From the NCBI GenBank assembly GCA_963808625.1, contig CAWEHK010000008.1:128001-192000 (forward strand): 64,000 nt of DNA, written 5' to 3'. Positions 10,590 through 59,612 of the stretch are shown one piece after another. Both the position numbers and the translations under genes were made by a program. The notes below the pieces were generated by a model that saw nothing but the letters and a program-made list of their open reading frames with translations, was not told the origin of the DNA and made no database searches. This DNA comes from an uncultured delta proteobacterium (GTDB taxonomy: Bacteria; Desulfobacterota; Syntrophobacteria; Syntrophobacterales; Syntrophobacteraceae). The first letter of the stretch is position 1, and the number at the start of each line of letters is the position of its first letter.

Positions 10590-10790
10590 CGGGCTCGGAA
10601 AACCGCATGGGGTTTCCGCGATTGGTCTCTGAAGTGGCCCTCGGCAAGGGAGGGGCCATTCTGGGCTTGGAGGTCAGCCGGTTGGCAAGATCGTGCTCGG
10701 ACTGGTACCGCCTCCTGGAGGCAGCCGCCCTGGCCGGGGCGCTGATCGTCGATGAGGAAGGGATCTACGATCCGAACGAGCACAATGCTC
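10590..10790 (+). pseudogene. Internal fragment of a large serine recombinase
   Basis: GFPRLVSEVALGKGGAILGLEVSRLARSCSDWYRLLE...IVDEEGIYDP. Similarity ends where the CHAT gene's 3' end overlaps it. Confidence 0.75.
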
Positions 10791-13682
10791 TAAAGAGCTG
10801 GTCAGGCATGGCATTGGGATCGCCATACAGGATGAACGCCAGGCGATCCATCCGGTTTGTCTCCAGCGGAATATCTCGCTTGGCCTCCCGCAGGCACTGG
10901 CCCATGGTGTAGGTTCCCTTGAGCAAAGACTCATAGAACTTTTTGACGAATTTCCTGGCGGAAGCGGAGTCAATGTTCCACAGCGTTCCGACGTAAGCCT
11001 CGACGCCAGCCCGCAGGAAGGCGCTGGGCAAGTCATAGGTTTGGTTCTCGTAGATCGCGGGCCGTGGATCGGCAGGGGTCGCGCTCTCGCACGATGAGCT
11101 GAACACCAGGACCGGCGGGGCCCCCTGGAGCGCGCTGGTCAAGAGATCGGTGGTAATTCGGCCGTCCTTCAAGGCCCATCCGCTGTCCTCGCCGTCGAAA
11201 CCACTGTGGCCAGAGTAGTGGATCAAGCCGTACTGTCCGCTGCTCAGGCGCTCCAACAGCGCCATCCACTCGCATTGCTTCGAGCCCATCAAGACGTCTT
11301 CATCTTTGATCTCAAAACGGCCGTCGCCCAGCAGCATCGTGCGCAGGTCTTCGATCTCCTCACGAGACGCCGACAGGTCATCGGTCGGGTCGCCAATCAG
11401 CAGGGTCCTAACCTTGGCGCCACCTCGCACGGGCGGCCGGATATTATGCGCTTCCGGTCCGACGATACTACGCCCGACCATGAATGGAAGGTCCTTGCCG
11501 GCATAGGCCGCCTCCAACATCAACTCCCATGGGATATGCTGCAAGCCTTCGTCGATGGTAAACAAGATCGTCGCATCGTCCGGCGGGTTGTCGAGATACC
11601 TCTTGATGGCGTCGGTCGTAAAGTAGGTCCGGATAAAATCTGCAACTTGCTCCAGGTTCTGCTCCAGGTTCTCCTTCGCCGTAGAGGCGTCGGACGGGGC
11701 CGGGTGCAGCAAATGGTTGACACGTTCTCGATAGCCTGCCAGGAACCGAGCCTTGGTGTCTGCTGTCATTCGCTTCTGGGCCGAGACGAGATGCGCACCG
11801 CGTCGGCCAAACAAGGTAGTGACAACGTTCGGATGAGGCTGGAGAAAGCGCGATGACCACGTCTCGTGGCTTGTCCTCGCGGCGATCCAGCAGGCCGAAA
11901 TAGCCCAGGAGCCATTCGGCAAAGGAGTCTACCATGAACTGGGCCGTTCTGGGGTCCGCCGTGTCGGTGAGATAGCCATGCCGGTCAAGCCAAACAAGCC
12001 ATTTCTGTTGCAAGTCGAGCCTGGGATCATCCTGTACCAACAGAGCCTGGTACTTCTCGCCAGCGTCCTTTTCTTTGTCGAGGACCCCGATCAACTGCGC
12101 GAGCTTCGCTCGCGGTTAACGGCCGCTGCCAGCGTCTTCAGGGTGTGCTTCTCCTCTTCGTTCAGCGGGCGGAGCAGGGCTTCAAAGAACTCGCGGCGTG
12201 GGCGCTCAATGTCTTGGATGGCACGATCATGGGCTTTTGTTGACCCATTTGCTTCCTTTTCATGGCGGATGAGCGCCGATGACGCCAGGGCAATGAGATA
12301 GGGGTGTCGCCCAGCCTCTGTGCTGACAAAGTCGGTGCTCCGCCTTCAGCCGGTTCCCGCATCAGGTAGGTCTTAAAGAGCTGTCACCCACTGTGTTCGC
12401 TCGTCTTCGGTGAGGCATGACAACCATACCAGCTTGATGGCGCTGTCGAAGCAAGCGCTCACCGCTTCCTCGATCATTTCTGTGGAACTGGCACTCACCT
12501 TATCTCGCATGTCCCTGTATCGGCGCTGGTCATTCACCGCAATGATGAATTGCGCCCCGGCTTTCTCCACGTCGTCCAGCACCTGCCAGAACATACGATG
12601 TTCTTGACTGGCTTCTTGGCTTACGGCCTCCGACAGAGGCACCCGCGCTATCCTGCCTCATCTTCCATGCTGGCTCGTCGACCAGGAACAGGAATCGCCG
12701 GTTGCGATCGCTTTCGGTTTTCAGGAAGTCCTTCAGCGATTTCTCCGGATCATCGCCGTCAAAAGCCTTGCGGAGCTCTTCCTTCTTGTCTTCCTCTTCG
12801 ATAGCCTCCAGGCTCAACAGGAACTTGCGATAGACGAAGTCTTCGGCCGTGTTCTTGTGCAACCGCCCGAAACTCACCTTGCCTACTTGCCAGTCCCGAA
12901 ACAGCCGCTCGGCATCAGGATCGTGGGCACGATAAAACAAGTGCTCCAGCAGCGCCGTCTTGCCCATATTCGGGCTGCCAAGGACCAGGACCCGGCGCCC
13001 ATCGCCGACTGCGCTTTCGATCTCCTTGATCTCAGCCTCACGGGCGCCGAAATCGCGGGCCTGCAGGCCATACAATGCTGCATCATGAGGCGTGCCCAGG
13101 ATACGCTCCGCCTCCTTAACGTATTTCTCGTTGTTTTCACGTTGCGTTTCGTAGCCTGCGTCCGCTTCTGGAGGAAGAAAGAGGAGGATATAGATCGACT
13201 TCAGCCCGCGCGGGGATGCCAGGAAAACCTTGAGGGCCGTGCACATCTGGCGAGCACATGAGCCGAATCCAACTCTTACCCGGCCTGTGGCAAAGGCAGG
13301 CAGCGCCAGGCTAGCTATCGAGAGCTTCTCCGCCTCACGCAGGCAATTGATGGTGACCTCGTAGACCAGTTGCTCTAAAGTATAGTTGTCCGGTGTCGTA
13401 GTCGATCACGGCGCCATGCAGGACGTGTTTCACGTTCAGACCCTGGCTTGGCAAATCGCCAGGTCCAGTGACCACAACCGTGCCGGCTTCCAGGGGACAT
13501 TGGCGATGGGCCTCTTCAACGTATGCCGGACCGGCTTTTTTGGCCAGCTGGAGAGAGACACCGGCCCCCATCGTGAGGTAGTTGTCGTCGCTGCTCGCCA
13601 CAGCGTCGACCGACGCGGGCGGATTCAGGATGTTACCCTCACAGATCTCGACCGTCGTGTTGCCGAATTGAAACTTAGCCAT
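10765..13682 (-). CDS. Macro domain - STAND/AAA-like ATPase - CHAT (caspase-like) protease fusion, about 970 aa (about 6 frameshifts)
   Basis: Macro: GNIL...DAVASSDDNYLTMGAGVS...VLHGAVI...SLALPAFATG. ATPase: GAREAEI, GSPNMGKT, FLFLVDE, AGRHPYLI (GxP), winged-helix-like WLDRHGYL...F.EW. CHAT: LQHIPWE, LLIGDP, IHYSGHS, FSSSCES, AFLRAG, FILYGDP. Confidence 0.8.
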
Positions 13683-13790: not shown

Positions 13791-14713
13791 TCAGAGCGTC
13801 GAAAAGACTTGCAGGGTCCGCAGCTTCGGTCGGAGCATTCGAGCTGTGGCTTCTGCTCGTAACTCTTGAGGTTGGCCGCGGCTAGCTGGATCAGCGGCCT
13901 GTAGGTCAGATCGCCTGTCGGCCCCGTTGATTGCCTCGCCCAAAGCCCAGGTGAACGCCCCGCGCCACGTCGCTGCCGATCCTGGCATCGGCCGCAGTCT
14001 CACGGTCTTCGTACAGGCCGCCAGCAGGACGTGGCGGTCGAAGTCCACGATGCCGAACTTGTTCTGGCGGAAGCGATGGCGCAGTTCTTTCATGAACTCC
14101 TGCATCTTCGACGTCCCACTCCTCAGGTGGAACGCTTTGCAGCATCTTCGACAACTCTGTGCCGACCAGGTGTCGAACTCGGCGTCGCGTTTGCCTGCAT
14201 CGCTTCGATGCGCTCCTGTCGATCTCCTGCGGCGGTATCAGGTAGCGTGGAATGAACTCGACGGTGCTTCCTGGAGGGGCCTCTGGATGCTGCCGCTGTG
14301 ACAGCAATCGGCAATGAAGGTGAAATTGACCTCTGCCGGGAAAATCTCGAAGATGGCGCGCAGGTCGTCGTCACGGAACGGCTTGTCCCAGTCGTGGTCG
14401 TAGGGGACGATGACCTCGTCGAAGCCTTCCCACTCCTCGTTGTTCTGGTCCGTCACCTGCGTGCCGTGGCTGCGAGAAGTGGAAGACCCGAACGTCCTGC
14501 CGCTCTGCTAGTCGTCCAGCAGCCAGCCAGGCCGTCACATATGCCCTGGTTCGTGGCATCCTTGTCGTGTAGGAGCTTGATGTCATTATCTTGAAATCCG
14601 AAGTAGGTAGTCAAGAGGCTGTTCATCTCGATGGTATCGTTGATACAGCCTCGCAGCGCCCAATCAGGGCGGACAAAGTTGTTGATCCCGACCAGCAGTG
14701 CTCGTTTGACCAT
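13791..14713 (-). CDS. Metacaspase/orthocaspase (peptidase C14), several frameshifts
   Basis: RBS AGGAGG. KRALLVGIN...LRGCIND, FHFSSHGTQV (His), DEVIVPYD, IADCCHSG (Cys), LLAAC, GAFTWAL, QKPQL. Confidence 0.88.
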
Positions 14714-15186
14714 GGTTCATCCTCCTGTCAGATATTTGGTTTGGTGTGATTGATGCCGAAAGATCACGGATGTCTCCGATGCTATCACCTCCTTCTCCAC
14801 ACGTTAAACGTAAAACGGACAGCGTTTCTGCTTCCGACAGAGATCGGAGCGTCACGTCAAGACAAGCTCCGGGTATCCGCTCAGCGTGTGGAGCGACCAG
14901 GTCACGTCATCTTCACCCCTGTCCATCAAGCGAGCGTGGTGAAGCCTTAGGGACAAAATCCGGTCGGCGAGATTCTCGTATCGGTAGCGTTCCAAAGCCC
15001 ACGGGTAACGCTTAAAAAAGGAGCCGCGCAAAGATCCAGGATGCTGGATCAGCATGCTGCAGAGATCGTCATGTTCCAATGGGCTTGCAGCGCCAACACT
15101 GATGACATTCGGAAGATTCTTCCCATTGTGAAATGACCCTCAAAGGAGTCCTACGGGAGAGGTTCAGTCCAAAAAGCTGGTCCGCG

Positions 15187-43749: not shown

Positions 43750-45987
43750 GAGACTCAAAAAGTGCAGGCGGATCACTTTGAAGATCATCATAGCCGACTT
43801 CCTCGTTCAAGGCTTCGAAGACCGGCCGGAGATATTGCGGACCAAGCTCTTCGAAGCGCGGCCATCGCCCTCGATAACTGGTCTTCGGGAACGGTCAGGC
43901 GCGCTTCGAATCCTCCGGGCCGTAGCGCATATCCGGCCTGAGAGTATCGAAAGAGATGATCCAGAACCGTCGCCTCCTTGATGCCGAATTCTCTGCGCCA
44001 GATCAGCAACGGATTGCCCGGCGTTGAACGCCTCGCCAATCACGATGTGCCGCCGCCTCCCGCCCGCCCTCGGCGCTGGCTGGGAGGCGGCTCGGGCGGG
44101 TGCCGAGGAATGGCCTCGATGGAACGATCCCGGCAATAGCTCTCGATGATCGACATGAAAGTGGCGCCATAGCTTCTCGAGCTTCGCTTCTCCAACGCCA
44201 TGGATGGTGAGCATGCCTTCCGCGGTCTGCGGAGGAAGGCGGCCATTTCGACCAGAGTGCGGTCGGAGAAGATCACATACGGAGGGAGTTTCGCGGCACG
44301 CTGCCAGCTCCCTGCGCTGCTGCCGCAACACCTCGAACAGCTCCTGATGGCAGGGCATCGGCCCTGTCTCCGCATCTTTCGCGGCAGCCTCACCGCAAAC
44401 AGTTTCTGATGGCGGGAAGCGGCCCTTCACCGGCATCTTTCCCCGGCGGCCGCGCCTCTTCGTGGGGGGCATCGATGCGGCAGCAGAAGGTTTCCCGGCC
44501 TTTGAGCACCTCCCATGCCCTGGCGCTCAGACGCAGTCCGCCGAAGTCCGCATCTTCGATCATAAGCCCCTGGTGAAGAAGCTGCCGCGCGAGCTGCTGC
44601 CACTGCTTGCGAGAATATTCCTTGCCGATGCCGTAAGTCGAAAGCTGGTCGTGCCTGCGGTTGAGGACCTTGTTCGCTCGCGAACCCAGCAGGACATCAA
44701 TGATATGATTGGCGCCAAAGTACTCGCCCGTGCGTTTGACACAGGACAGAAACTTCTGGGCCGGGATCGTTGCGTCCGTCGTTTCCCGTTCGCCGGCAAG
44801 GCAATTGTCACACATGCCGCACGAGGCGTCGGGAAAGGCCTCGCCAAAGTAGTTGAGCAGCGGAATGCGCCGGCAGACCTCGGATTCGACCAGCTTTATC
44901 ATGGCGTTGAGCTGCAGGTTGGCGGCCCTTCGGTCGAGGCCTTCCTTGTTCGCATGGAAAGTACTTGATCTTATGGATGTCCCCATAGGAAAAGAGCAGC
45001 AGGCATTCGGCCGGCAAGCCGTCTCGACCGGCGCGGCCGATTTCCTGGTAATAGCTTTCGATGCTTTTGGGCAGATCATAGTGAAGCACGAAGCGGATGT
45101 TCGATTTGTTGATCCCCATCCCAAAGGCGATGGTTGCCACAATGATGCGGACCTCATCCCGGACGAACCGCTCCTGGTTCCGATTCCGCTCCGTATCGGA
45201 CAAACCCGCGTGGTACGGGGAGGCGGAGAAACCCTCCCGGTTCAGAGCGACGACAGAGTTCATCAACCTGCCTGCGGGTAAAACAGTAAATGATGCCGGA
45301 TTCATTCGAGAATTTATTCAGGAAGGCGATGGCCTGGCGGAAGGGATCTTCTTTGGGGACGAAACGGATAAGGAGATTTTCCCGGTTGAAACTGGCAACG
45401 AATTCACTGGCATCGTCGAACCCCAGGCTGGCCTTGATGTCCTGCCGCACGCGCGGGGTTGCGGTCGCCGTGAGGGCGAGGCACACGGCCTCGGGCATCG
45501 CGGCTCGAACCTCAGCCAGTTGGCGATACTCGGGACGGAAATCCGGTCCCCATTCGGAGATGCAGTGAGCCTCATCAATCGCCAGGCAGGATACCGGGAC
45601 GGATTCAAACAGGCTGCGCACATTCGGCTTGAGCAGGGTCTCCGGCGCCACATAGAGCATCCTGGCCTGGCCTCGGCGCAGCCTTTCCACATTGCGCCGA
45701 TAATCCTCGGGGGACAAGGCGCTGTTCAGCAACACCGCCGGGACCGCCAACTCGGCAAGCTGTTCGACCTGGTCCTTCATGAGCGAGATGAGGGGTGACA
45801 CGACAATGGTGAGCCCTTCGAAGATCAGCGCAGGGACCTGGTAGCACAGTGATTTGCCGCCGCCGGTAGGCATCACCGCGAGCGTGTCCCGGCGTCGGAG
45901 CACGTTTTCGATGACCTCTTCCTGGAGAAAGATGAAGCCGTCGTACCCAAAGACCGACTTAAGGATATGTTTTGCCTGCTCGATCAC
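43750..45987 (-). CDS. recQ: ATP-dependent DNA helicase RecQ (several frameshifts; 3' end uncertain)
   Basis: MPTGGGKSLCYQ, IDEAHCISEWG, ALTATAT, ATIAFGMGINK, YYQEIGRAGRDG, CRR...CGMCDNC, RQC (STYGIG), HRDC (PPYVIFSD), C-terminal HTH (TVLDHL). Confidence 0.93.
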
Positions 45988-49674: not shown

Positions 49675-50779
49675 TTCTTCCTCGCACCCACGCCGAGAAG
49701 AATCCCAGGGTGTTTGCCGCCTGTGACACCAGCAGCAGCCACACAAGCAACATCCGCTGTCCAAGAGTCTGACTTGAAATCCCCCTGAATCCCCCTTTGC
49801 AAAAGGGGGACTTACTCTTGGCTGTCGGAGAACTTACGGTTCCCTTCATTTCGGAGGTTTTGTGACTCCCCCTTGGATGGAGGACTTACGGCTCCCCCCT
49901 TTGATAAAGGGGGGTTGGGGGGGATTTTGGAGTCGAGCGATCCGCAAAACCTGACTTTCTCGACAGCCTCTAAACGGGTAAAGGATCAAGTTCAGATAAA
50001 AGATTTTGGTTCAGGCAGGAAGGAACCTCGCCGCTTCCTCGGCGCGCACCCGGTGGAACAGGTAAGCCCCACAGCCGTAACCAAAATGCTGTCGCCAGAA
50101 ACTGCGGAACGTCAGAGCATGGGCGTGATAGACAATCGCTCTTGGCTCGTGAATCATGCCATATCCAAAGTCGAGCCAGCGCCGGCAAAGTTCCCTGTCT
50201 TCTGCTGCGGCAAGCGGATACCGGGGGTTGAAGCCGCCGACGAGGCGAAATCCCTTAGCCGGCATCGCCAGGTTATTGGAGGCGAGAAAACGTGAATGAA
50301 GAGGGTCCGCATTATAGTAGGAATGCAAATAGTCGATGAGCAGTTGACTGGCGGCTGAATAGCGGTTCTGCCGGAGGACATTGACGGTGCTCCCGCCGAC
50401 CGCACAATCCGGTGACGCGGCAACGCGGTCGGCCAGTCTCTTCAGCCAGTCGGCGGCAGGGACACAGTCGTCATCAAGGAACGACAAAAATTCACCTCTT
50501 GCGACCTCGGCACCGGTATTCCTGGCCACGGCAGGACCGGCATGCGGCTGCTCCAGAATGGTCAAGCTAAGGAATTCTTTGAGGTAGTCCAGTGGTTCTT
50601 TCCGGGGTTTCCCCTTGCCGTCGATAACCACGATGACCTCGAAGTGGTTCGCGGGGATAATCAAGACGAGCAAGGCCTTGCAGACAAACAAGGAGTTGTT
50701 CCGGGCGATTGTAGGACGGAATGATAATGGAAAAAGAGGGCCATCGCCGTCCCTTCGGGCAGCTCACCTCGGTCGTCAT
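49667..50779 (-). CDS. GT2 glycosyltransferase with a palindromic element inserted near the 3' end (frameshifts)
   Basis: SIIIPSYNR, GPAVARNTG, FLDDDC, GGFN...AEDRE. Tail LLLVSQAAN resumes after the insert. Confidence 0.8.
49776..49972. mobile_element. Palindromic/MITE-like insertion (CCCCCTTTG..AAAGGGGG hairpins; GGCTGTCG..AGAA inverted ends)
   Basis: GGCTGTCGGAGAACTT (49820) and GACTTTCTCGACAGCC (49953-49968), plus two CCCCCTTT/AAAGGGGG hairpins. Absent from the paralogous GT2. Confidence 0.65.
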
Positions 50780-51682
50780 TTCCCGTGCCTCTGCTCTCTC
50801 GTTCGCCTTGCCCATTCCCACAGGAAACCCGAGAAATTCGCCGCCTGGGACGCCATCAGCAGCAAGGAAATCAACAAGGATCGCCCTCCGGACTTCAGCC
50901 TGAAGGGATACCGCAACAAATTTGAATAGAACCTTCCAGGCTCCACCCGAACCCTCTCCTGTCCCCGGTTCGAGCGCACCTGCTGATAGAGGAACGCCCC
51001 GCGACCATACTTGAAATGCTGCTTGCAGAAGCTCCTGAAGGTCAAGTGGTGGGCATGGTAGACAATCGCCTCCGGGGCATAGGTCATACCGTAGCCACAG
51101 TACAGCCATCGGTCGCAGAATTCACGGTCTTCCGTGGAGATGCGAAGGGCAGGGTCGAAGCCTCCCAGTTCGCGGAAAAGCCTGGCCGGCAGGGCCAGAT
51201 TGTTGCCGGCAAAGAACGTAGCCCGGTTCGCGTCGGCATTGTAATAGGCGTAGAGGTAATCGATAAGAAGCTGGCTGGCTGCGGCATAAGGGTTGTCTTC
51301 GAGCTGATTGACCGTTCTTCCGCCAATGAGGCGATCCGGCGCAGCCGCAAAACGCGCCGCCAGGTTTGACAACCAGTCGGGAGCCGGAGCCGCATCGTCG
51401 TCCGTGAAGACCAGGAGTTCTCCCCGCGCCTGCCCGGCTCCGGCGTTTCGCGCCGGCCCACAACCCAGGTTTGGCTGGGTGAGCAGGACCAGGTTCAACC
51501 GGGAACGAAAGCGGAGCAATTATTGGTTCCAGCGGGATCTTGCTGCCATCATCCACGACGATGACCTCAAAACGGTCCCCCGGATAGTCCAACCGAGCAA
51601 GGGCTTGAAGACAGGCAGCAAGTTGTGCCGGGCGATTGTAGCTCGGGACAACGATAGAAATGAAAGTGTGTCTCTCGGTCAT
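50776..51682 (-). CDS. GT2 glycosyltransferase (frameshift near 51520)
   Basis: SIVVPSYNR, VVDDGS, GPARNAG, FTDDD, GGFD...EDRE. Confidence 0.9.
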
Positions 51683-51718
51683 CAAACTCAATCCCGTTTT
51701 GAAACGCTGCTGGCCCAC

Positions 51719-56828: not shown

Positions 56829-57043
56829 TGTCTGCCTCTTGTGTCTCCCTTCCGTTTGCCCCCGAAGAAGCCGCGGAGAAACCACCCACTCTCCTTCGGC
56901 AACAGTCGGCCCCATGACCCAACGTGGCCATCGGGAAGCTTCTCGTTGAGAAGGCGGCGAATGGAGGAGTTACTTGTTGCCAAATTCAAAAGTTTATTGC
57001 AAGGATATTCTGTCATCGAAAAATTTGAGAACAGGGGTTGCTG

Positions 57044-59137
57044 GTGAGCGCCAAACTAAAGTCAAAGGCAAAAACGGCAGTTGTAGTTAAGGAACCTCAG
57101 AATTCAACCCGGGCGGTCAATTTGCCGCCTTTTTCCATACCGATGCTTATTTTGTTGATTGGTTTGATATCCTCGTGTGTCATCCATTTCAGCCATCTAA
57201 GCTCCTGGAATGACGTCAAGGGTTCCTATTACTATGACAATGACCTCCCTCTTCTACTGACCGCCGATGGCTACTACTATCTGCGCCTCAGCTCAGATCT
57301 TACAGACGGCCAGTATAATGAAGTGGACGAACTGAGACCAGGGCAGACAAGACCAACTCCAATACCTCTACTTGCCAGATTGACGTCAGTTACGCATCAA
57401 ATCACTCAGATACCTCTTGAGAAAATCGCTTTCTATATCCCTCCAATCCTGGCTTTGTTAATGTTTTCCGTCTACCTTTTGTGGGGGTATGCAATCAGTG
57501 GGGCCGTGGTCGCTTTTTACTCATTATTGGCTGGAATTTCAAGCCCATGCTGGTACGGGAGCACTTGCCTGGGAAAATTTGATACGGATGTTTTAAATCC
57601 AGTTTTTGTGTACTTGATTTTGTACACAATGTACCGATTTGTAACAATTCAAGCCCGTAGCAGGTATATATACTTATTTGCTTCCATTCTGATATCCTTA
57701 ATATTTGGCCTCTGGTGGGACAATGTCAGATATCTTGGCATTTTTTTGGTTATATCAGTGTATTGTTTGAGCATTTTTCTGCCCTCATCCAAGATAGAGA
57801 GAGTCATCAAATCAATCCTTATCGTCATCCTATGTCTCATTGGAATAGCAGTTCTTTTCGATTTGCACTCCTTCTTTCCCGCCCCCCTGGATCGGCCGAT
57901 TCGCATTGCGTCGTTCTATCTGAACCTGACCTTAAAAGCGACCGGCTCCGAATTTCCGGATGTGGGGGAGAACATCAAGGAACTGCGGGCATACTCTCCC
58001 AAAGAATTCATATTCTTCACGGGAGGCTCCATGCGTTACCGTTCTCTTCTCCCTGGTGGGGCTGGTGGTGCTGTTTTGGCGTAAAAGAGCGGTCGCCCTG
58101 TGCCTCCTCCCCGGGCTTGCCCTCGGGCTTGGTGCTCTGCTTTCCCGACGCTACCTGATTTTCTTTGTTCCTCTCTACGCCCTCGGGTTCGGTTATTTTC
58201 TGGGGGAGGTTTTCTTAAACAGTGCCTACGTGCAGCGATGGCTGAAAAAACCGATCGCCTTCTGCGCCTCTTTGGTCCTTTGCTGTCATCCTGCTGATTC
58301 ACGCCTTTTGCCCACTGTCTAACGAAAACGATGATTCCCCGATTCACCGCTGACCGCGTTCCCCTGGCCCGCTCGCTGAAGACCGAAACGCCGCCGCAAA
58401 CGACCGTGTGGGCGCACTGGGACGAAGGCTTCTTCCTCCAGTACTTCGGCCGCAGGAGAACCTTCATTGATGGGAGCATGCAGAGCCCCTTGAGGTTTTT
58501 CCTGAGCGCCTTCCCGTTGAGGTGTGACAATCCGGTGTTGGCAGCAAACTGGATGCGCTTCTTCAGTGTTAATGACATACCAGGCTTTCACGCCTTGAGG
58601 ACGCAACTGGGGAGTACTGAAAAGACCGTTGCTTTGCTGAAACAGGTGCTGGCCAACCCGGACCAGGCAGAGAAGATCCTGACCGATTTCGGCCTTGAAC
58701 CCGATGAGTGGAAAGGCCGCCTCTTTCCCGACTCAGCAAGTGCCTCATTTCTTACTCCTGACTTGCTGGGTAAATCATATTGGTGGTTTTACGGTTCGTG
58801 GAATGTGCAGGAGCAAAGTGGCAGACAATTATCGATTGGCCAGGTTGACAGCCGTGTTGGTTCGCCTCAGGACAAGAACCCAAAAGGGACTATCGGCCCA
58901 TACAAATATGGCATGATTTTCGACATAGATTCCTCCGGGGTAAGGATCGAGGAACTCGATTCACAAGCCGAATATGTTCTCATCAGGATGAAAGGGCAAC
59001 CACACAGCTACCTTGCTGAAAGAGAGCTCCTCCGCTCGCTGGTGGGGCGTCTGCTCTATGCGGACCCAAACCGGACCGAGCCCTTTCGCACCATCCTCTA
59101 CAAACCCTTGGTTGGCGGTGTCTGGGCGGTCAACTGA
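57044..59137 (+). CDS. STT3/PglB/AglB-like oligosaccharyltransferase (frameshifts near 58040 and 58300)
   Basis: LLTADGYYY, GKFDTD, many TM helices, I.EL, RRY..F, WAHWDEG (WWDYG position), TFIDG. Confidence 0.78.
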
Positions 59138-59213
59138 TGCCTTCTATCCTTCGCGAGATTTGATGAGGTCAGGTGAGGAGTGTGTTCATGGACTCTATTG
59201 GAGCAGGAAGGAC

Positions 59214-59612
59214 TCAAGGAATCAGGTCAAAACCCTGTTCGGCGAAATGTGGGTCAAACGCGAACGCGGTCTTGATTCCCGAAGCACGCATGACCTCAAA
59301 GCTGACACAGTCGACAAGGCTCAGCCGCCGCTTGGACACAGCCAGCAAAGCGGCGATCCCCAAGCGATGGAGAGTGGAACTCACGAACTCAACATGAATC
59401 ATCGGCATCAAGTCATCATGGAAGCCCCGGACTGCCTTCAGCCCGAGCCGGCTCTGCAAAAGGGCAAAGGTCTCGACAAGAATGTAATTGCTGGAAATCA
59501 GTGTGTGCTCGCTTTGAATTATCTCGCTCCAGGCCTGCTTTGCAGATTCATGGTTCTGATCGTCTCTGTCCATCAGGGCATACAGGGCTGAGGTATCGAC
59601 CATGATTTTCAT
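59214..59612 (-). CDS. vapC: VapC-type PIN domain toxin
   Basis: VDTSALYA, ILVET, LSLVDCVSF, FAFDPHF. Confidence 0.92.
   Translation of the reverse strand: MKIMVDTSALYALMDRDDQNHESAKQAWSEIIQSEHTLISSNYILVETFALLQSRLGLKAVRGFHDDLMPMIHVEFVSSTLHRLGIAALLAVSKRRLSLVDCVSFEVMRASGIKTAFAFDPHFAEQGFDLIP

Follow-up and report, generated by a model that had tools for sequence, protein, structure and literature searches.

Analysis of a stretch of 64,000 nucleotides from an uncultured delta proteobacterium (contig CAWEHK010000008.1, positions 128,001 to 192,000; the whole stretch is called the window below) revealed that a set of split reading frames on its minus strand almost certainly constitutes one gene, coding for a protein in which a Macro domain, a STAND-type NTPase module and a CHAT protease domain are fused. 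The original prediction, derived from the sequence of the window, had proposed a single three-domain protein of about 970 amino acids (aa), and intact homologues of 966-1031 aa, which match the window protein collinearly from end to end, bear it out. The limits it had given for the gene also hold, with a start and a stop codon located at the two ends, and the motifs that it had quoted are all present (EGNIL, ASSDDNY, GSPNMGKT, LVDE, GRHPYLIAL, HYSGHS and SSSCES). The gene and its domains are arranged as follows.

10765..13682, minus strand: Macro-STAND-CHAT gene, about 970 aa across seven indel breaks, collinear with the homologues P0001, P0003, P0004 and P0005; ATG at 13682-13680, stop codon at 10767-10765
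13178..13682, minus strand: Macro domain (residues ~1-176), with the motifs EGNIL, ASSDDNYLTMGAGV, LHGAVIDYD and LPAFATG
11897..13040, minus strand: STAND-type NTPase module, made of a nucleotide-binding domain, a helical domain and a winged helix
12961-12959, minus strand: lysine of the Walker A motif GSPNMGKT, in the nucleotide-binding domain
12652-12650, minus strand: aspartate of the Walker B motif LVDE (FLFLVDE), in the nucleotide-binding domain
12312-12301, minus strand: GRHP of the helical domain
12070-11897, minus strand: winged helix
10783..11863, minus strand: CHAT protease domain, with the histidine of HYSGH at 11208-11206 and the cysteine of SSSCES at 11091-11089

The first frame, read from the ATG at 13682, gives 115 aa with a Macro match, and four more frames lead down to the stop at 10765. 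A homologue search made with a 291-aa middle piece, in which longer proteins were sought, returned five relatives, four of them intact and 974-1031 aa long; all four carry both the Macro and the CHAT families, and two carry AAA_16 as well. In tblastn, P0001, P0003, P0004 and P0005 run collinearly through frames -3, -1, -2, -1 and -2 of the window. A frameshift-aware alignment to P0003 spans residues 11-969 of this homologue and shows identity at 459 of the 925 aligned positions, at the cost of seven skips of 1-2 nt (near 13382, 12649, 12375, 12344, 12334, 12098 and 11845). Not a single in-frame stop codon is met along this alignment, which shows seven small indels and not the real stops of separate genes that would have told against the original prediction. 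Stop-codon recoding was considered and rejected, the two apparent stops at 12375-12345 vanishing along a compensating pair of shifts. It is because intact homologues carry the same three-domain fusion that we assign the split frames to one gene with near certainty.

Why these frames are broken is a separate matter. The frameshifts announced by the original prediction do exist as breaks of the reading frame, but it had missed their probable origin: they are most likely not biological and are assembly indels such as those seen in rpoB and rpoC of the same genome. The adjoining gene for a C14 caspase-like protein, described below, shows nine indels and no stop over 0.9 kb, which brings the two genes together to 16 indels without any nonsense codon over 3.8 kb. 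The rpoB gene of the assembly is found in three profile pieces, and in the rpoB/rpoC region the frame switches about nine times in 6 kb (G000:C22:91500-98500, G000 being the genome of the window). Within the window, recQ appears as three overlapping open reading frames (ORFs) on the same strand, corresponding to DEAD, Helicase_C and Zn-bind/RQC; a GT2 glycosyltransferase gene and an STT3-like gene are likewise divided into overlapping ORFs on one strand, and the three split genes lie at 43807-45987, 50011-51718 and 57038-59591. Since the indels come without nonsense codons, the catalytic motifs are kept and essential genes are broken too, the breaks are very probably indel errors of the assembly and not the outcome of pseudogenisation. 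Such errors are patchy across the assembly, because gyrA, dnaE and several long STAND genes of the genome are intact. An attempt to map frameshifts genome-wide from overlapping same-strand ORF pairs was too noisy, such pairs occurring everywhere at 4.6 per 10 kb.

The competing explanation is a decayed gene cluster, in which the gene, the caspase and the TIR-STAND neighbour would all be pseudogenes of a dying defence island. It would account for the fact that three adjoining conflict genes are all broken while several long ORFs of the window, as well as gyrA, dnaE and the other STAND genes of the genome, are intact, and it suits an island that is strain-specific and contains a recombinase remnant. 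We consider it improbable nevertheless: to the lack of nonsense codons over 3.8 kb and the damage seen likewise in rpoB/rpoC and RecQ are added a homologue identity that is still 50-64%, with all catalytic motifs kept, and the evidence of metagenome contigs. At 12381-12383, the very point of frame loss, two related contigs (~97% and ~90% identical over the aligned stretch) contain two additional bases and thus restore the frame at the only break covered; they come from relatives, are short and of low depth, and matched no more than 0.12 of the sampled words. A similar situation is seen at another locus of the family, in a different MAG (metagenome-assembled genome; L005:9959-12942), where the family member and the preceding SIR2/nSTAND1/WD40 gene are also found in overlapping frames, probably through the same type of error. 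Apparent pseudogenes in this indel-rich assembly call for a check at the level of the reads before any biological meaning is given to them.

The domain content had also been read correctly at the outset: a Macro domain, a P-loop NTPase with a GxP motif and a winged helix, and a CHAT domain with its His/Cys dyad kept. Pfam Macro (PF01661) matches 13338-13682 with 28 bits (cut-off 22), profile positions 73-117 continuing in the next frame, and the intact homologues score 46.8-67.2 bits. The Macro profile matched TTHA0132 with an E-value of 2e-19, and Af1521 was matched as well; when a family protein was searched by sequence against the PDB, its Macro part alone found a match. In the model of P0003, the Macro part was paired by Foldseek with Af1521, macroH2A1.1, TTHA0132 and MacroD2, with TMt values of 0.63-0.80 (0.72-0.80 for the first three). 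Conservation was followed in 25 full-length family members aligned over their whole length; it comprises, for the Macro domain, the GxGV loop, FPAFATGxG and the invariant N42, G49, H97 and D102 (P0003 numbering). The S[ST]DD of the family aligns with the NAAN of TTHA0132, and the position that follows the conserved glycine of 'GDIT' varies between D, N, S and E among family members, the window protein having N there. The asparagines of NAAN and the aspartate of GDIT are needed for MacroD-type hydrolysis. Because these residues are replaced or variable, a MacroD-type hydrolase mechanism seems unlikely from the sequences; the GNI for GDI and SSDD for NAAN pointed out by the original prediction extend to the family as G[DNSE]I and S[ST]DD. 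A role of the Macro domain as ligand sensor, inferred in the original prediction, is plausible, if not quite probable, and it fits a gene context marked by NAD and ADP-ribose (SIR2, TIR and a NUDIX of the ADP-ribose pyrophosphatase type).

The same Macro subfamily, recognizable by DDNY[LM]TM and HG[AT]VIDYD, is a mobile module found in many other conflict-type architectures, in Chloroflexota, Cyanobacteria, Actinomycetota and one MAG of Desulfobacterales. There, the relatives are fused to EAD7 or to TIR, or stand at the C-terminus of AAA_35-WD40 proteins:

L022, L023 and L027: Macro-EAD7
L012, L014 and L021: AAA_35, with or without WD40, and a C-terminal Macro domain
L026: Macro-TIR
L008, L013, L015, L017 and L020: Macro followed by ~200 aa

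These fusions bear on another interpretation, according to which the Macro domain would be an enzyme or effector that removes or processes ADP-ribose marks or NAD-derived molecules, while the STAND module is switched on by other means. It could for instance counter phage ADP-ribosyltransferases or reset the signalling, the trigger of the STAND module being then a phage protein, sensed at the winged helix or at the N-terminal region of CHAT, or a partner NLR. The EAD7-tagged relatives have their Macro domain at the usual position of effectors, and the hydrolases Af1521 and MacroD2 are among the closest solved structures, both of which speak for an enzyme. Against it stand the replaced or variable NAAN and GDIT residues, the lack of any other candidate sensor domain in a 970-aa protein filled by three domains, and the presence nearby of a dedicated ADP-ribose pyrophosphatase, so that we judge an enzymatic Macro domain unlikely.

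The middle module is less readily recognized by sequence profiles. Scores for AAA_16 reach 24.5-26.9 bits in the family (26.9 in the window) for a cut-off of 32.6, with weak matches to ATPase_2 and nSTAND3 (E 0.007); thus, the profile searches proposed with the original prediction place Macro and CHAT above their Pfam cut-offs and leave AAA_16 below its own. When the module of P0003 was modelled alone, at a predicted local distance difference test score (pLDDT) of 84, two ATPase_2 proteins of archaea matched best, PAB2304 with a Z of 18.7 over 307 residues and SSO1545 with a Z of 17.3. The NB-ARC of plant NLRs was matched with a Z of 14.6 over 298-301 residues, and further matches comprised ORC/Cdc6, EfAvs5 (Z 12.0), CED-4 (Z 11.7), MalT, Avs3/4 and NLRC4, with Z of 10.8-12 for CED-4, MalT and Avs3/4/5. 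Because the model matches NLR NB-ARC and related structures, the module, as modelled, is a STAND/NB-ARC-like unit composed of a nucleotide-binding domain, a helical domain and a winged helix. Its GxHP residues G446, H448 and P449 are invariant among the 25 sequences, as are the Walker A glycines; the Walker A lysine is kept in at least 90% of the family, and in the window copy GKT and DE are both canonical.

The C-terminal part poses no such difficulty: Pfam CHAT (PF12770) scores 84 bits on 10768-11928, with a cut-off of 24, and Peptidase_C25 39.7 bits. Both HYSGH and SSSCES (the cysteine being C867 in P0003) are invariant in the 25 sequences, and among the structures matched by the CHAT part of the P0003 model the TPR-CHAT protein Csx29 comes first (Foldseek E 8e-14), separase being matched too. 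The AlphaFold model of P0003 (974 residues) has a mean pLDDT of 86 and a predicted template modelling score of 0.64, and its three domains fill the chain; Pfam found no repeat domain in the family proteins, nor does the model leave room for one. The polarity described in the original prediction, with a C-terminal protease and no repeat sensor, is therefore confirmed by Pfam and by this model, and structure prediction, which it had put forward as a check, pairs the ends of P0003 with Macro and Csx29 CHAT structures and the middle with NLR NB-ARC.

Such proteins are rare. A profile search in 1.84 billion representative proteins gave 18,325 matches at E <= 0.001, but only the first 36 of these match beyond the CHAT part, about 16 being full-length and the others fragments; the score falls from 222 to 211 bits and lower at the point where CHAT-only proteins begin. 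Three family loci were found in the genome scan and 16 in the metagenome scan. The named ones belong to Chloroflexota (Anaerolineaceae and 'Chloroflexia' MAGs), a lineage different from that of the window genome, whose molybdopterin oxidoreductase is 66-68% identical to Syntrophobacteraceae and Desulfoferrobacter proteins. No family gene was found in 60 relatives of this genome, seven of them of the same genus, where only unrelated cyclase-CHAT-TPR proteins match the CHAT part. For two genomes of the same genus (G001 and G002), alignment to the window begins only at ~15154-15184, just outside the caspase gene, and continues to the right; to the left of this point they have unrelated housekeeping-type genes. 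The absence from relatives, the break of synteny and the resolvase remnant lying nearby lead us to consider the gene as accessory and probably acquired horizontally. Synteny with G001 and G002 fixes the right border of the island alone and gave no evidence of a defence hot spot.

The immediate surroundings of the gene contain the following features, together with pairs of genes for a membrane protein and a NUDIX protein at other loci of the family.

13791..14713, minus strand: C14 caspase-like partner with HG and DCCHSG motifs, matched by Pfam Peptidase_C14 on fragments; 191 of 299 residues identical to the orthologue of L033
6114..10182, minus strand: NLR-like TIR-nSTAND1-WD40 gene (TIR_2 88.7 bits, nSTAND1 271 bits, WD40), in at least six overlapping frames
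10607..10790, plus strand: remnant of a serine recombinase (resolvase), Pfam Resolvase E 0.001, profile positions 51-104 of 145
L032:6174-7640, L029:19488-21185, L043:1020-2466 and L036:12090-13444: membrane protein plus NUDIX

The caspase-like gene is the most constant of these neighbours, and it had been missed by the original prediction, which described the fusion gene without a partner. Of the 14 loci with at least 450 nt of upstream sequence, 10 have a C14 caspase gene of ~305 aa, its HG and DCCHSG intact, immediately upstream and in the same orientation (the window, L004, L006, L029, L030, L033, L036, L038, L039 and L041), and L042 has a remnant. Macro-STAND-CHAT thus probably works with the C14 caspase. 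The conserved EFxPRYLxPP linker of the C14 protein is a candidate cleavage site. Two other partners recur. A fusion of SIR2 and trypsin (~460 aa; L004:13161-14555, L029:18175-19551, L031:5659-7059) is found at four loci (L004, L006, L029 and L031) and survives as a remnant at L032; it may be either a signal maker or an effector activated by proteolysis, and its SIR2 part matches the PADLOC models for pAgo-associated SIR2 and PDC-S65. The pair made of a membrane protein with 4-5 helices and a NUDIX protein occurs in seven loci (L004, L005, L006, L029, L036 and L043, and as a fusion in L032), the NUDIX part scoring 138.5 bits against TIGR00052 (ADP-ribose pyrophosphatase, YffH/AdpP; cut-off 79.55). 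This pair is reminiscent of the ADP-ribose-gated channels with a NUDT9-like domain and, by analogy, might do more than erase the signal and serve as a membrane effector that responds to ADP-ribose.

A SIR2 or a TIR is encoded within 10 kb in 7 of the 10 loci with usable flanks; SIR2 is noted for L004, L005, L006, L029 and L032, and TIR, the less common of the two, for the window and L031. NLR-like genes combining SIR2 or TIR with nSTAND1 or NACHT and with WD40, TPR or HEAT lie near the family gene in the window, L004, L005, L006, L029 and L033. The TIR-nSTAND1-WD40 gene of the window, of ~1350 aa if read through, is likely the counterpart of the SIR2 plus nSTAND1-WD40/TPR pairs of L004, L005 and L006; it is possibly a NAD-cleaving source of signal, or else an independent defence gene. 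Within the recombinase remnant, a piece of 35 nt (10740-10775) recurs at a depth of up to 38x in contigs of unrelated metagenomes, where it has different flanks, as expected of a conserved recombinase motif or a repeat. Elsewhere in the same genome (G000:C28:67384-68172 and 73077-73538), there is a second, unrelated pairing: a C14 caspase, 27% identical to the partner family, is separated by ~5 kb from a protein of 1322 aa, part of which is CHAT-like.

The neighbours share an NAD and ADP-ribose theme, in which SIR2 and TIR would make the ligand, Macro bind it and NUDIX destroy it. Together with published precedents, this theme led us to the following model. At infection, NAD-cleaving SIR2 or TIR enzymes, often borne by nearby NLR-like STAND-repeat sensors, would free ADP-ribose or a derivative, which the Macro domain would bind, thereby freeing the STAND switch to oligomerise. 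The assembly would gather the CHAT domains and activate them by proximity; CHAT would then cut and activate the adjoining C14 zymogen, possibly at the linker mentioned above, and perhaps the SIR2-trypsin protein too. Finally, the active caspase would degrade cell proteins and abort the infection, while the membrane protein and the ADP-ribose pyrophosphatase would either keep background ADP-ribose low, and so set a threshold, or form another effector that responds to ADP-ribose. Taken as a whole, this chain from an ADP-ribose-type ligand through Macro, STAND assembly and CHAT to the caspase could equally prove right or wrong. A more elaborate version, which appears rather unlikely, has the logic of a helper NLR and an apoptosome: the SIR2/TIR sensor NLRs would detect the phage and emit a molecule derived from ADP-ribose, and Macro-STAND-CHAT would be a second-tier NLR nucleated by this small molecule, not by a protein ligand, and acting as initiator protease for the executioner C14 caspase, with the membrane/NUDIX pair as threshold setter. 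It would parallel both the plant pathway leading from TNL through a small molecule and EDS1 to a helper NLR, and the cascade from Apaf-1 through caspase-9 to caspase-3.

Several observations weigh against the proposed model. In the family, the Walker A lysine is not always followed by Ser/Thr, the second acid of Walker B varies as well, and one member lacks the lysine itself, for which reason ATP hydrolysis may be weak. The fusions of related Macro domains to EAD7, TIR and AAA_35-WD40 suit an effector or enzyme as well as a sensor, and the subfamily is not of the ThsA type (no PADLOC ThsA match). The loci L005, L031 and L032 have no C14 caspase. In the window, the recombinase remnant lies between the CHAT and TIR genes, and their adjacency may thus be accidental, while neither the SIR2-trypsin nor the NUDIX partner was found in its genome, so that the constant core is the caspase plus Macro-STAND-CHAT. 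Independent data bridge only one of the seven frame breaks, those at 13382, 12649, 12098 and 11845 being uncovered. Lastly, no NADase gene was found in the available flanks of L030 and L037. This last point, which applies to the flanks of L033 as well, would suit a further alternative: the Macro domain would guard against phage ADP-ribosylation and trigger the protease on binding host proteins or nucleic acids that phage transferases have ADP-ribosylated, in place of a free second messenger. Its structural neighbours do include macro domains, MacroH2A-like or from PARP14, that bind ADP-ribosylated proteins without catalysis (PMC11204291). The recurrence of SIR2, TIR and ADP-ribose pyrophosphatase near the family genes, which suggests free NAD-derived nucleotides, makes a guard of this kind quite improbable.

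If the proposed model is true, three strands of bacterial immunity that have until now been investigated in different systems meet in a single protein: signalling by NAD-derived molecules, switches of the NLR type and cascades of caspases. It would represent a STAND protein gated by a small molecule, a rarity among NLR-like switches, and would offer a tractable bacterial model of two-tier NLR networks and of initiator/executioner protease logic. The recurrent set of C14 caspase, SIR2-trypsin and membrane protein plus ADP-ribose pyrophosphatase provides concrete, testable partners, and intact homologues such as those of L004, L006 and L029 can be expressed, so that the errors in the window copy are no obstacle.

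The original prediction had not recognized the architecture from described systems. We likewise found no description of it in the running text of the openly readable literature, and PADLOC models gave no match, whether to the whole protein or to its Macro part. What the proposed model combines, in an architecture without a description found, are known principles: the Macro sensor of type II Thoeris, the activation of PCaspase by SAVED-CHAT, and NLRs. In type II Thoeris, made of the TIR protein ThsB and the membrane-anchored Macro protein ThsA, binding of ADPR or IAD to the Macro domains of ThsA is followed by oligomerisation (PMC11204291). The likeness lies in Macro as presumed receptor of an ADP-ribose-type signal, but the effector is STAND-CHAT here and a membrane domain there. 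In Thoeris, ThsB is part of the operon; the TIR of the window does adjoin, but as one domain of a STAND-WD40 protein whose gene is set apart by the recombinase remnant, and few other family loci have a TIR nearby. In type IV Thoeris, the NAD-derived product of a TIR protein activates the caspase-like ThsE, which cleaves many proteins (10.1101/2024.10.24.620036). ThsE is the only protease of that system; it is small, has its sensor domain, of unknown fold, at the C-terminus, and comes without Macro or STAND.

With the Avs (AVAST) proteins, such as the SIR2-STAND protein EfAvs5, Avs3 and Avs4, the family shares a STAND switch of nucleotide-binding, helical and winged-helix domains, a death effector and a location in variable islands. 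In Avs proteins the effector stands at the N-terminus, and repeats at the C-terminus act as the sensor by binding phage proteins. Macro-STAND-CHAT, which has no repeats, a C-terminal protease and a small-molecule-binding fold at the N-terminus, is not an Avs, because the repeat sensor is absent and the polarity reversed. Csx29, of the type III-E Craspase, resembles it through its CHAT part, and its protease activity is regulated and directed at a dedicated substrate, as the proposed model would have it for the family; but it is activated by the RNA-guided Cas7-11 through TPR contacts and has neither Macro nor NTPase. The NTPase-centred conflict systems of multicellular bacteria described by Kaur, Burroughs, Iyer and Aravind comprise STAND, caspase, trypsin, TIR, Macro, Nudix and EADs (PMC7159879, PMC8195603). 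Neither the Macro-STAND-CHAT protein nor its gene set was found in those passages of the two papers where these terms occur; the domain vocabulary is the same, and the taxa are similar (Chloroflexota and the like).

The closest parallel is provided by the SAVED-CHAT/PCaspase pair of the Haliangium type III-B CRISPR-CBASS hybrid, in which SAVED-CHAT, once bound to cA3, forms filaments that cleave PCaspase and so activate it (10.1101/2023.06.23.546230). In both cases a sensor domain, a presumed one in the family, is fused to CHAT and a gene for a second, caspase-like protease adjoins; in SAVED-CHAT/PCaspase, according to the same source, CHAT is activated by ligand-induced oligomerisation and the adjoining caspase-like protease is both substrate and executioner. 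The differences are that the presumed sensor is Macro and not SAVED, that the presumed ligand is of the ADP-ribose type and not cA3, that a STAND module is placed between sensor and protease, and that there is no CRISPR or CD-NTase context. Pfam found no SAVED domain in Macro-STAND-CHAT proteins, in which Macro and STAND occupy the sensor position. By analogy, the family may therefore be functionally nearest to SAVED-CHAT/PCaspase while, for want of a SAVED domain, not being a member of it.

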